DNA of 64,000 bases from the NCBI RefSeq assembly GCF_044324875.1, contig NZ_CP172186.1; one strand, written 5' to 3'. Every line of letters starts with the position of its first letter. Position 1 is the first letter of the stretch. Made by a program: the position numbers. This document shows positions 15,001 to 36,000 of this stretch, piece after piece. Source of the stretch: Escherichia coli. GTDB lineage: Bacteria > Pseudomonadota > Gammaproteobacteria > Enterobacterales > Enterobacteriaceae.

Positions 15001-18000
15001 ATAGGAGCCAACGCAATCTTCCGGTATGATGCATTCATAGCCACGGTCATTTGCTTCACGCACGGTGGTGGTTACGCAAACTTCGGTAGTCACGCCACAA
15101 ACAATAAGTGTCTTGATACCACGCTTTTGCAAAATCAGATGTAAGTCGGTTTGATAAAAAGCGCCTTTACCGGGTTTATCAATCACAGGTTCGCCTGTCA
15201 CCGGATACAGTTCAGGAATGATGTCATGACCTGCCTCACCCCTGACCAGAATGCGTCCCATCGGTCCTGGTTCACCAATAAAGGTTTTTCCGCCGCGCGT
15301 CAGTTTGGCTGATGGGCAGTCGCTTAAGTCTTCACGATGGCCTTCACGGGTATGAATAACCATAATTCCTTTTTGACGTGCGGCTGCCAGAACTTCTTTA
15401 CATGGTGCGATAGCCGTGCGAACCAGTGAAACATCATTACCCAATGCTTCTCCAAACCCTCCTGCTTCGACAAAATCACGTTGCATGTCTATCATGATCA
15501 GTGCCGTTGTGCACGGATCAAAGGGTAATTCAAAGGGTTGAGCCTGAAAAATGGATATCGTCATGACAAATCTCCAGTATATATTGTTTACTGGTGACGA
15601 GTATTCAATATAAAGGTGACCCACAACAGAAAAAAAAGTTGTTTTACAGGAGCGAATATTTTTGAGGTGTCTAAATGTTGTTATGAAAAATGTGATTTAT
15701 ATCAATCTATGACATTCATAAACAACTTTTTTCAAATGTTTATTTGTTTAATATTAAAAAAATTGTCGATATATTGTGATATTAATCATCCTATTTGGCA
15801 GGGATAGTGCTGATTTTTAACAAATACCCCTTACCCCCGTCCTTCAACGGGGATATAAAGCGCTGTTTTCCACCTAACCAGGTGTCTGCTGCTATTCAAT
15901 GTATTGGCGGATGACGGATGCCGCCCGTTGAAGCAGGAACCCACGTCCTTAGGGCGTGGAGGATGTCAAATACCCGCCCTCATTGAGAGAGAAGCTACGA
16001 GATTTTCGCTAAGGGACACAGGTCATACGGGAGATGGCGGTTCCCAGCGTTTATCCTGCTCCGGCGGAGGCAGTGATGCGTCATCGTTGCTGTTCGCCGC
16101 GATATAATCGCGGTAGTAGCGTTCACTTCCTTCCCGGTGATGATCCACATCCGGTCGTGTAATCCTGTAGTCTTCGTGACCGGTACGGCCTGTCACATTA
16201 TGCCAGGCAACCATTTCAGCAAAGACCTGGTTAAATTGTTTGTCGTTTCCTTCTGGTTCAAAGCCCATTCTGGGATCACGCTCAAACAATACAGGTGCAA
16301 TCAAATCCAGTTTATCTGCCAGCGCATTGCGGTCATGGTGATTACGGAAAACAACCCTGTCACCATAATCCGTACAGACAAACTCTCCCGTCCGACGGTC
16401 ACGGAAACGAACACTCCCGTTCTTCTGCAAACGGGCCTCGAGATCACCGGTATTACTGAACCGCCCCGGGTTTCCTGGAGAGTGTTTTATCTGTGAACTC
16501 AGGCTGCCAGATCATCGTTTCCGATGGAAGCATAATAAGCTTTTTCTGCTTCTGCCGGTGGGATATGGCCCAGCCTTTCCAGCAATCGTCGATTGTTATA
16601 CCAGTCCACCCACGTGAGTGTGGCCAGCTCCACTTCTGTCCGGTTTTTCCAGCTCTTACGGTGTATTACCTCCGCTTTGTAAAGGCCATTGATGCTCTCC
16701 GCCATCGCGTTGTCATACGAGTCACCAGTACTTCCTGTTGATGCCAGTAATCCGGCTTCCTTAAGCCGCTGTGTGTAGGCCAGCGATACATACTGAGAAC
16801 CTTTATCACTGTGATGGACTGTGCCGGACGGTCGACGGGCCCATAACGCCTGCTCCAGAGCATCCAGCACGAATGTCGTTTCCATAGACGATGAGACCCG
16901 CCACCCCACGATGTATCCGGCAAACACATCAATGATGAACGCCACATAGACGACCCCCTGCCATGTGCTGACGTAAGTAAAATCAGCCACCCACAACTGG
17001 TCAGGACGTTCTGCCACAAACTGACGGTTTACGCGGTCGCCTGCGGCAACGGCTTTCCGGCTGACGGTAGTGCGGACCTTTTTACCCCGGAGAACACCGG
17101 CAAGTCCCATAACCGCCATGAGGCGCGCCACTGTACATCTGGCTACCCTGATTCCTTCCCGTAACAACTGACGCCAGACTTTACGCACACCGTATACCTG
17201 ATGATTCCCATCGTATACGCGCAGTATCTCTTTCTTCAGCCAGTCATCGCGCTGCGCACGGGCACTGCGTTTATCAGGATGATGTCGCTGTTGCTGACAG
17301 TGGTAATACGTTGACGGGGCAATATGTAGTTCACTGCATACCGGTCCGACCCCGTACAGCTTACGCAGCTTATCCAGCAGTGGCATCACTTTTTCCAGAG
17401 GCGGTCGAACTCCGCCTTCGCAAAATAAGCGGAAGCCTGGCGAAGGATATCGTTACTGCGGCGCAGTTCACGATTTTCACGTTCCAGCTCTTTCAGACGC
17501 TGACGTTCAGCGGTGGTGAGCCCGCCATCACCGCCTCCGGTATCCCGCTCATGCTGGCGTACCCAGACACGCAGAGTCTCCGGTGTACAGCCAATCTTTG
17601 GGGCAATGGAACAAATTGCCGCCCACTGTGAGTCATATTCGCCCTGACTTTCCAGAACCATACGAATCGCCCTCTGACGGACTTCGGGGGAAAAACGAGT
17701 ATTTTTAGTCATTCTGTTTACCTCTTTCTCAGGGAGTTTAGTCTCCAGGATTCCCGGGGCGGTTCAGGTCACCGATGCCGTGATGGAGCAGGTTGTAGAA
17801 TGGCAAAACAGACCACTGGATGCTGTTTACCCCATTGTTTATCTTGACTGTATCGTCCTGAAAGTTCGGCAGGACAGTCGCGTCATCAACAAATCGGTGT
17901 TCCTGGCACTGGGCATCAATATCGAAGGTCAGAAAGAACTGCTGGGTATGTGGCTGGCCGAAAATGAAGGGGCGAAGTTCTGGCTCAATGTGCTGACTGA

Positions 18001-33000: not shown

Positions 33001-36000
33001 GCCCCGCTCCAGGCGTTTGGTGAAGAGGCACAGTCCGTCACTGTCAGCCCACAACACTTTTATCTGGTCACCCCGGCGTCCGCGGAAGATGAACAGGTGT
33101 CCGGAGAACGGGTCATCCTTCAGGACGTTCTGAACTTTTGATGCCAGGCCGTTAAAGCCATTTCGCATATCGGTGATACCTGCAACCAGCCAGATACGCG
33201 AACCTGCAGGGAGAGATATCATCAGTGGCTGCTCCCTTTTATTTCGCGGATAAGTGTCTGTAATAACGCCGGCGTCAGTTTACCTTTAAGCCTGAGAGTT
33301 CCGGCCGGCAGAACCAGCTCACAACACAGACTGTCGGACGGTGTATTTATCTGCTCTGGTTCCTGTGCGGGGGCCGGGATTTTATTATCCGGCTCCGGCG
33401 TTAACGTCACGGGAAGCAGTGCCGGCATATTTTTTCCGGAAGGCAGCAGGCCACCTTTCCGGTATTGATGGCGCCAGTTGAAGAGCAGGTTATCGTTGAT
33501 TCCGTTTTCCCGGGCGATCTGCGCCACACAGGCTCCGGGCTGCAGTGACTGCTCCACTAAGGCGATTTTAAACTCATAAGGGAAGTTGGGCCGCCGGGGA
33601 CGTTTTTTTACCACGGGGGCTTCGGATATAACGGTGCTTTCAGGACGTACGACTGGTACCGTGGAAAATTGTCCGTAAAGGCAGGCATCAAGTTCCTGCT
33701 CCGACATGCCTGCGGGCAAAGGCCACGAAAGGCCAGCTCTCCGAAAGCGCACGAACATACTACAAACTGTTGATTTTGGTACACCCAGGCGACGCCCGGC
33801 CACAACCCGGGGTAAATGTTCTTCAAAGTGAAGACGTAAAGCTTCAGTGATCCAGGTCCGGTGTTTCATACGATAGTGTCCATTAAAAATGATGGACATT
33901 ATTTTTGTAGAGCCGGAGGAAACAGACCAGACGGTTTAAATGAGCCGGTTACGTTTTTCCAGCTCTTACGGTGTATTACCTCCGCTTTGTAAAGGCCATT
34001 GATGCTCTCCGCCATCGCGTTGTCATACGAGTCACCAGTACTTCCTGTTGATGCCAGTAATCCGGCTTCCTTAAGCCGCTGTGTGTAGGCCAGCGATACA
34101 TACTGAGAACCTTTATCACTGTGATGGACTGTGCCGGACGGTCGACGGGCCCATAACGCCTGCTCCAGAGCATCCAGCACGAATGTCGTTTCCATAGACG
34201 ATGAGACCCGCCACCCCACGATGTATCCGGCAAACACATCAATGATGAACGCCACATAGACGACCCCCTGCCATGTGCTGACGTAAGTAAAATCAGCCAC
34301 CCACAACTGGTCAGGACGTTCTGCCACAAACTGACGGTTTACGCGGTCGCCTGCGGCAACGGCTTTCCGGCTGACGGTAGTGCGGACCTTTTTACCCCGG
34401 AGAACACCGGCAAGTCCCATAACCGCCATGAGGCGCGCCACTGTACATCTGGCTACCCTGATTCCTTCCCGTAACAACTGACGCCAGACTTTACGCACAC
34501 CGTATACCTGATGATTCCCATCGTATACGCGCAGTATCTCTTTCTTCAGCCAGTCATCGCGCTGCGCACGGGCACTGCGTTTATAAGGATGATGTCGCTG
34601 TTGCTGACAGTGGTAATACGTTGACGGGGCAATATGTAGTTCACTGCATACCGGTCCGACCCCGTACAGCTTACGCAGCTTATCCAGCAGTGGCATCACT
34701 TTTTCCAGAGGCGGTCGAACTCCGCCTTCGCAAAATAAGCGGAAGCCTGGCGAAGGATATCGTTACTGCGGCGCAGTTCACGATTTTCACGTTCCAGCTC
34801 TTTCAGACGCTGACGTTCAGCGGTGGTGAGCCCGCCATCACCGCCTCCGGTATCCCGCTCATGCTGGCGTACCCAGACACGCAGAGTCTCCGGTGTACAG
34901 CCAATCTTTGGGGCAATGGAACAAATTGCCGCCCACTGTGAGTCATATTCGCCCTGACTTTCCAGAACCATACGAATCGCCCTCTGACGGACTTCGGGGG
35001 AAAAACGAGTATTTTTAGTCATTCTGTTTACCTCTTTCTCAGGGAGTTTAGTCTCCAGGATTCCCGGGGCGGTTCAGTTTATGAAAACATATCATCATTC
35101 ATTCGAGATGTTTTTATACACTCTGAAGAAAATGATCTCATTCCTGATTTTCTTAATTCGACATTCGTTGACTGGGATGATGCAAAGTACATGACAGAAA
35201 GTATGAGCTTCGTACTGGAAGAAGTATCAGTTATCCTGAACAAAGAGAATACCGAAACAACAGAAATTTCTTATGATCAAAACCTGTATTCACTTCTGGC
35301 TCATCATAATCATATTACCCCTTGCTGGAATAATGTTATTTCTCTACTGAGTGAAGATGCGTCACTTGCTGGTGATACTTTTTGTAAGTGGCTTAATATT
35401 AATTATTCTTTATTGCCAAATGACTCGTTGCCTTTGACTGATGTTCAGTTCTCGCAATTACTTATTAAGGCTGTTACATCACCTCATATCAGTAAAGAAG
35501 CGTTAATAGCGATAACCATGGCATTTAGGATAACTCTTATTAATGTACCAGAAAACTTACCACTGAATAATGCTGCGGTACTAATCAAGCAAAAATGGCT
35601 GGCACCAACCAGTACTGTGTTTGAACAACTTGGTGATGCTGCCAACTTACTGATTTAGTGTATGATGGTGTTTTTGAGGTGCTCCAGTGGCTTCTGTTTC
35701 TATCAGCTGTCCCTCCTGTTCAGCTACTGACGGGGTGGTGCGTAACGGCAAAAGCACCGCCGGACATCAGCGCTATCTCTGCTCTCACTGCCGTAAAACA
35801 TGGCAACTGCAGTTCACTTACACCGCTTCTCAACCCGGTACGCACCAGAAAATCATTGATATGGCCATGAATGGCGTTGGATGCCGGGCAACTGCCCGCA
35901 TTATGGGCGTTGGCCTCAACACGATTTTACGTCACTTAAAAAACTCAGGCCGCAGTCGGTAACCTCGCGCATACAGCCGGGCAGTGACGTCATCGTCTGC

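Follow-up and report, generated by a model that had tools for sequence, protein, structure and literature searches.

Two almost identical copies of the insertion sequence (IS) IS629, which we call A and B, bracket a raffinose/sucrose (raf) gene cluster in the stretch of DNA analysed here, 64,000 nucleotides of the Escherichia coli contig NZ_CP172186.1 (hereafter, the window). An earlier note on this DNA had pointed to the pair as the possible ends of an 18.6-kb composite transposon. We read the segment from A to B as an IS-bounded, recombination-prone raf segment that was assembled piecemeal, one that looks like a compound transposon and did not arrive in one piece. Our confidence in this reading is roughly 75%. 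The evidence comes from the anatomy of the segment, from the distributions of its IS junctions among sequenced replicons and from a sister plasmid, pCh101, that has a single IS629 between the same outer flanks. From these we infer the order of events and the direction of change. The structure itself is familiar and well-understood plasmid mosaicism.

From left to right, the region consists of a truncated relaxase gene (nikB′), A, a fragment of the IS256-family element IS1414 (IS1414′), the raf cluster, an IS of the IS2 group, a remnant resembling an IS91 terminus, a hexapeptide-repeat acyltransferase gene, B and a fragment of a large plasmid gene. The list of bracketed cargo in the earlier note was correct, as judged from open reading frames (ORFs), NCBIfam matches and the annotation of relatives.

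Two direct copies of IS629

The two copies were delimited by a self-BLAST of the window and by direct base comparison. Copy A (16457-17766, minus strand) is 1310 bp long and apparently intact, with overlapping, uninterrupted frames orfA (17386-17712, 108 amino acids) and orfB (16499-17389, 296 amino acids), and an ALIL frameshift pseudoknot (17315-17431). Copy B lies in two pieces, also on the minus strand. The first (31060-31253), the end with the 3′ part of orfB, comprises its first 194 bp and is 100% identical to 16457-16650. The second (33953-35076) is made up of the remaining 1116 bp (33961-35076) and an 8-bp duplicate, is 99.9% identical to 16643-17767, and carries orfA (34696-35022), an ALIL pseudoknot (34625-34741) and most of orfB. 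Without the insertion B is likewise 1310 bp long, lies in direct orientation to A and matches it at 1309 of 1310 positions; the sole mismatch, at position 819 of the IS, is C in A and A in B. The description of two essentially identical copies in one orientation, the second split by an IS66 element, thus holds. As direct repeats the copies are 1.3 kb long and 14.6 kb apart (17.3 kb counting the element that splits B).

Both copies have the length of an IS3-family element (~1.3 kb) and terminal inverted repeats of the 5′-TG...CA-3′ type, with ends TGAACCGCCCCGGG...CCCGGGGCGGTTCA. The orfB product of A matches the NCBIfam model transpos_IS3, an IS3-family DDE transposase, at 308.7 bits, and the Rfam ALIL pseudoknot is found in A and in B at 116 bits each, as in a two-ORF frameshifting element. 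PMC3271280 gives IS629, IS1203 and IS3411 as isoforms of a single element of the IS3 family, which transposes by copy-out-paste-in through a circular intermediate (bioRxiv 10.1101/2023.06.07.543989). A and B share with these isoforms the 1310-bp length, terminal repeats starting TGAACCGCCCCGG, the overlap of orfA and orfB with an ALIL pseudoknot, and the DDE transposase. RefSeq names close copies IS629 or IS1203 family, and our use of the name IS629 rests on these labels together with identities of ~92-97% between this subtype and the other IS629-type copies met here (96.7% for a copy in p135-1, 92.6% for a third copy in the window, C, and ~93.6% over the terminal 232 bp for pO157-type IS1203 copies).

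The element that splits B is an ISCro1-type member of the IS66 family (31254-33952, minus strand, 2699 bp). It lies after B's 194th base between perfect 8-bp direct repeats of GTTTTTCC (31246-31253 and 33953-33960), and its insertion cut ~30 C-terminal codons off B's orfB. Membership of IS66 is borne out by ORFs of the TnpA, TnpB and TnpC types (225, 115 and 523 amino acids), with TnpC scoring 478 bits against NCBIfam transpos_IS66, and the element is 100% identical to a RefSeq-annotated ISCro1-family element in an avian E. coli chromosome (NZ_CP172331.1). Within raf islands, copies of this element are found at other places, at locus L006 6405-9104 (NZ_CP172331.1, 100%) and at locus L005 16831-19534 (99.9%). 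One strain has it within the IS1414 remnant and another just past the rafR end of the cluster, after the equivalent of window position 28802, and these differing sites imply that the element was recently active in these lineages.

A sister plasmid with a single IS629

The window resembles the IncK2/Z-type plasmids of poultry E. coli, among them pCh101 (NZ_CP127318.1; IncK2/Z, chicken, Russia). This plasmid is collinear with window positions 1-17767 and 33953-53797, so that the shared sequence extends 16.5 kb leftward from A and 18.7 kb rightward from B, and the two blocks overlap on one IS629. Its order is A's left flank, one IS629, B's right flank, without 17,310 bp that comprise one IS copy, the cargo and the ISCro1-type element. 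Near the joint pCh101 differs from the window at 2 positions in 10 kb on the left and at 34 positions in 18.7 kb on the right. Its best match to the A-to-B region is a 5.7-kb stretch across the joint only, and hence it has no raf module. The earlier note had proposed that homologous recombination could delete the sugar module, and that plasmids with one IS629 at this junction should be sought as its products; pCh101, with exactly one IS629 between the left flank of A and the right flank of B, is such a plasmid.

What marks a cassette of direct-repeat recombination is a sister replicon in which the flanks are collinear and the repeat is present exactly once. Since pCh101 has retained an IS copy and does not show an IS-free empty site, it bears the mark left when direct repeats recombine homologously, or when the reverse reaction takes place. 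Recombination between A and B would remove, or reversibly re-insert, one IS copy together with the raf module, and pCh101 would be the natural single-IS form. The IS629 of pCh101 has A's base at position 819 and is free of ISCro1, as would be the case if the crossover took place within the final 490 bp of the IS, or if the two plasmids separated before those changes arose. Segments lost or gained between direct IS repeats elsewhere resemble the pair formed by the window and pCh101, with a double-IS form, a single-IS form and collinear flanks. Nothing in this pair is unusual except that the cargo is a chicken-associated raf module.

To judge from these sequences, the change from two IS copies to one was probably a loss from a window-like parent and not a gain. 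The window-like state would be the older one because raf lies next to the same nikB′ flank in pLH50-c-A, pF11-3 and p135-1, and because the two flanks of B are neighbours in pF1022-2. A gain is unlikely in our view. It would start from an older pCh101-like plasmid, with nikB′ and the truncated large gene on either side of one resident IS629, into which a circle of IS629 and IS1414′-raf-acyltransferase, excised from a replicon with the same direct repeats, was integrated by homologous recombination. As one reversible reaction links the single-IS form with the double-IS form, pCh101 fits this order equally well. Moreover, the joint between B and its right flank also occurs without raf, in plasmid p1 of strain Br_112_kylling, so that it could predate the cargo, and the raf module is found on many replicons and chromosomes, always with the porin-side IS629. 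However, such a gain requires a donor with a joint between the acyltransferase gene and IS629, and none is present in any collection searched. Two further observations become coincidences if the module was gained: that raf stands beside the same nikB′/cysteine-hydrolase flank in pLH50-c-A, pF11-3 and p135-1, and that in pF1022-2 a distance of 5 kb separates the acyltransferase gene from the right flank of B.

Four junctions with unequal distributions

Searches covered PLSDB and 5,426 complete E. coli genomes and, for the joint between the acyltransferase gene and B, also metagenome contigs and GTDB representatives. No record in PLSDB or in the complete E. coli genomes holds the whole A-to-B region at 80% coverage or more, and for this reason the four IS junctions were examined one by one. 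Nor was the A-to-B unit found in another context in any record of the collections searched.

The joint of A with IS1414′ is present in 203 records from 201 of the 5,426 genomes and in 11 PLSDB plasmids. Its carriers include chromosomal raf islands with the order IS629-IS1414′-rafY...rafR-IS2-group IS and without a second IS629. This joint is old, and it accompanies the raf module across many chromosomes and plasmids. The chromosomal islands share with the window not only this joint but also raf genes that are 99-99.8% identical and the same IS2-group element after rafR. They have the porin-side IS629 only, without an acyltransferase-side copy, and hence are not bracketed by IS629. In four chromosomal islands that were inspected, and likewise in pLH10-b-1-A, one IS629 each was counted. 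Some matches seemed to span from the left end of A to the right end of B; these were rejected because a single IS629 had aligned to both copies. A group II intron (ltrA) frequently divides the porin-side IS629 of the chromosomal islands, and that of several plasmids, at the equivalent of window 16972-16980 (loci L005 and L006 2282-5741; L010 2425-5949; L011 7053-10536). Copy A in the window is unsplit.

The other junctions are far rarer. Within PLSDB the joint of nikB′ with A is found only in pLH50-c-A and pCh101. The joint of B with its right flank at 35077 is found only in pCh101 and in Br_112 p1, where the IS629 has a different left flank, a fragment of a DUF932 gene, and where there is no raf. 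The joint of the acyltransferase gene with B is absent from PLSDB and from the 5,426 complete E. coli genomes, and a search with its exact 34 nucleotides gave 0 matches in metagenome contigs and GTDB representative genomes. No IS interrupts the acyltransferase region at the insertion point of B in pF11-3, in p135-1 or in at least 24 more plasmids; there it leads on, free of IS, into a terminator-like hairpin followed by additional genes. With distributions this unequal (201 genomes, 2 plasmids, 2 plasmids and 0), A and B did not arrive together.

A joint that is unique to the window in every collection searched is also what an assembly artefact would produce, if contigs had been mis-joined at the 1.3-kb repeat and had thereby created both the second IS copy and the joint between acyltransferase and IS629. 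We give this hardly any credence. B has private features, namely the ISCro1-type element with its perfect 8-bp duplication and the one base that sets it off from A. Its right joint is present in two finished plasmids as well, and its flanks are neighbours in pF1022-2.

Target duplications and the compound transposon

The bases around A are TAC and GGT (...ATTAC, A, GGTCA...) and those around B are AAG and GTT (...AAAAG, B, GTTTA...). The flanks of all three copies (A, B and the third, C) were compared in every pairing for a target duplication of 3 or 4 bp, and none was found; there is accordingly no sign that flanks were exchanged reciprocally, as they would be in an inversion between copies. 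The outer flanks of the A-to-B unit, TAC and GTT, likewise give no duplication around the whole. The earlier note had observed this and had taken it to suggest IS-mediated rearrangement over a single insertion, and both copies do lie at rearrangement joints. IS629 is reported to produce duplications of 3-4 bp (PMC3271280), and a simple IS629-type insertion in pF1022-2 has one of 3 bp, CAA. In O157:H7, according to the same paper, such duplications are present at only 21 of 47 IS629 sites, so that copies without them are common. The missing 3-4 bp duplication concerns the freshness of an insertion and not the identity of the element, and it indicates later rearrangement at A and at B.

A true compound transposon would have been inserted in one event, by IS629 transposase acting on the outer ends of the 18.6-kb unit (15.9 kb before the entry of ISCro1). 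Several features speak for this. The cargo is bracketed by IS copies whose outer terminal repeats are both undamaged and correctly oriented to each other. Copy A, with its intact orfA and orfB and predicted frameshift pseudoknot, may encode a working transposase. Transposition of the whole unit from these ends, with A supplying the transposase, is mechanically possible; it has left no trace. There is also a precedent in Tn3411. Ishiguro et al. are said to have described IS3411, in 1988, as the IS that flanks Tn3411, which would make it likewise a catabolic module on an enterobacterial plasmid bracketed by copies of an IS629 isoform. The isoform relationship is given in PMC3271280, and a passage of PMC11903708, citing Ishiguro et al. 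1982, presents Tn3411 as a citrate-utilisation compound transposon. Other copy-out-paste-in elements form compound transposons too, e.g. Tn6330 (bioRxiv 10.1101/2023.06.07.543989).

Despite these points we regard a one-event insertion of the raf unit as very improbable. The target duplication is absent at the outer ends. The left outer joint occurs without B and the right outer joint occurs without A's cargo. The cargo-free sister plasmid keeps an IS copy where an empty site would be expected, and the unit is seen nowhere else in the collections searched. Transposition of Tn3411 was shown experimentally, whereas the raf unit has no duplication and no second location, one of its IS copies is disrupted by ISCro1 and its junctions have independent histories. 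As a past event, then, the composite transposon is not borne out. Against it the earlier note had set the case of two IS copies that arrived independently, each with a duplication of its own; the histories of A and B are indeed independent, and the duplications are absent.

A proposed order of events

The piecemeal assembly may be reconstructed as follows. A would be an old IS629 that truncated IS1414 beside the raf porin gene, and B, which belongs to the same IS subtype, a recent daughter copy inserted directly behind the acyltransferase gene. Next, ~5 kb would have been lost in a local, IS-associated deletion that replaced the right flank of B and fused the acyltransferase gene to an internal piece of the large gene, either through recombination between two inserted copies of IS629 or through an IS-adjacent deletion after a single insertion. 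ISCro1 would later have entered B, cutting off the end of its transposase gene.

In pF1022-2 the positions that correspond to the left and right flanks of B are 5.1 kb apart on the same strand, and the same vapBC genes follow. For this reason the position of B is best interpreted as the joint of a local deletion. For IS629, deletions associated with the transposase and with IEE are known (bioRxiv 10.1101/2023.06.07.543989). The plasmid pF1022-2 has an IS629-like copy between the acyltransferase gene and the large gene, and this was considered as the source of B and rejected, as it is 95.6-95.8% identical and has its own CAA duplication.

Some points weigh against this reconstruction. The two-step origin of B depends on one comparator plasmid, which is itself rearranged. 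The direction of loss in pCh101 is drawn by parsimony and not observed, and pCh101 is a relative and not a direct descendant, with 75 differing positions in the left 16.5 kb, mostly far from the joint. Recombination in the source strain, and the circles that it would yield, are deduced from sequence comparison, and the source plasmid is seen here through the window alone. Lastly, A too has no duplication. At its left joint the nikB′ nucleotide at the end of ...GGTATTAC (window 16449-16481) touches one end of IS629 in the window, as it does in pCh101 and pLH50-c-A. The identical nucleotide abuts the opposite end, with the IS inverted, in pAPEC-O2-211A-ColV and pCFSAN083829_2. An IS629 of opposite orientation at the same nucleotide means that the history of this joint is more complex than our model.

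The inverted copies are found at locus L012 4467-5212 (pAPEC-O2-211A-ColV, with the IS internally deleted) and at locus L016 7958-9267 (pCFSAN083829_2, IncK2/Z). Homologous recombination between IS copies was rejected as the source of the two orientations, because it cannot swap which end touches the flank.

The third IS629-type copy, C (47154-48443, plus strand), which the earlier note does not list, lies outside the bracket. It is inverted relative to A and B, 92.6% identical to them and without a target duplication, and its flanks are the same in pCh101, Br_112 p1 and pLH50-c-A. C is a potential recombination partner of A and B. The idea that A or B is a hybrid with C was rejected, as both are uniform and 92.6% identical to C along the whole length. 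In pCFSAN083829_2 an A-type IS629 sits 1 bp from the site of C in the opposite orientation, with a TAT duplication (locus L016 20703-22012). GAAAA(A)TAT is common to the native sequences of the C site and of the right flank of B, a hint that insertions may favour such a site.

Cargo and flanks

The left flank of A is the remnant of nikB′ (16023-16456, minus strand), and the identical sequence in pLH50-c-A is annotated by RefSeq as 'relaxase NikB, incomplete'. Further to the left lies a 136-bp direct repeat (7149-7284 and 15835-15970, 97.8% identical, ~8.7 kb apart), and one endpoint of a deletion in p135-1 (15887), described below, falls within its second copy. To the right of A is the 3′ fragment of IS1414 that A has truncated (17767-18593, plus strand). 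It matches positions 106-336 of the 338 in the NCBIfam IS256 transposase profile; its name is taken from RefSeq and its end at 18593 was set from p135-1 and pLH10-b-1-A.

The raf cluster (18796-28498, minus strand) was annotated from its ORFs and from the RefSeq annotation of copies that are 99.8-100% identical, with gene names as in PMC12987596. It contains genes for a porin (rafY, 18796-20292), a sugar kinase (20392-21318), a PTS IIA-like protein (21930-22460), a GH32 invertase (rafD, 22509-23939), an MFS permease (rafB, 23936-25228), an alpha-galactosidase (rafA, 25268-27394) and a repressor (rafR, 27488-28498), as well as DUF2913 ORFs between the kinase and the IIA-like gene. Next comes the IS2-group element of the IS3 family (about 28833-30168, plus strand), which has NCBIfam matches to the IS2 TnpA and TnpB subfamilies and alignable terminal repeats. 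Its left end is approximate, and its right end was taken from the junctions of relatives, with a breakpoint at 30168 in pLH50-c-A. The remnant that resembles an IS91-family terminus (30261-30497) is 84% identical to window 56216-56451, the counterpart of which in pLH50-c-A adjoins an IS91-family transposase gene.

The acyltransferase gene (30567-31049, plus strand) was identified by NCBIfam hexapeptide acetyltransferase matches. B was inserted 10 bp after its stop codon, within the stem of the terminator-like hairpin AAAAGGGCCGTTACTGGCCCTTTTT (window 31040-31059; locus L007 19170-19240 in pF11-3). In pF11-3 the IS-free site reads ...GAAAAG directly followed by GGCCGTTACTGGCCCTTTTT. The right flank of B (35077-35631, plus strand) comes from the interior of a large plasmid gene, annotated as a YobI-family P-loop NTPase or as hypothetical; B truncates the fragment at one end and IS1 (35632-36403) at the other. 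In the native sequence ...GAAAAATAT runs straight on into GTTTATG. An ORF at 35191-35658 is an internal piece of this ~1264-amino-acid gene, which precedes vapBC on ColV/IncF plasmids.

Other rearrangements among relatives

The raf module adjoins the same cysteine-hydrolase/nikB′ flank in three plasmids. In pLH50-c-A copy A is present and identity is 99.97% over 19.7 kb. Relative to the window, the stretch from ~6409 to 30168, including A and raf, is inverted in this plasmid and 30169-39523 is absent. The breakpoints of the inversion lie at inverted copies of another IS2-like element (window 6295-6408, 39524-39637, and 5324-6302 / 42080-43058), and the inversion is a second, independent IS-driven rearrangement of the region.

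In pF11-3 and p135-1 both A and the IS1414 remnant are gone, through two different deletions with microhomologies of CCATT and a single T at the joints. The deletions remove window 16270-18621 (against locus L007 6762-6770) in pF11-3 and 15888-18633 (against locus L004 26832) in p135-1. They end 28-40 bp past the end of IS1414 and look like scars of IS loss.

Significance

For annotation, the region calls for caution. An identical pair of IS around a cargo is not by itself a transposon, and a census taken junction by junction shows that this bracket was assembled stepwise.

We also considered that the A-to-B segment is an active vehicle for raf, either as an IS629-bounded compound transposon or as a circle of IS629 and raf that integrates into any resident IS629. 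We think this improbable. If true, such a vehicle would help to explain how the IS629-IS1414′-raf mosaic spread to many chromosomes and several plasmid types in poultry-associated strains.

The raf module is among the traits linked to chicken-adapted E. coli that carry IncK2 plasmids (PMC12987596). Recombination between two copies of IS629 offers a concrete route by which a plasmid of the IncK2/Z type may lose or gain this module, with pCh101 as natural evidence, although the practical value of this is modest.

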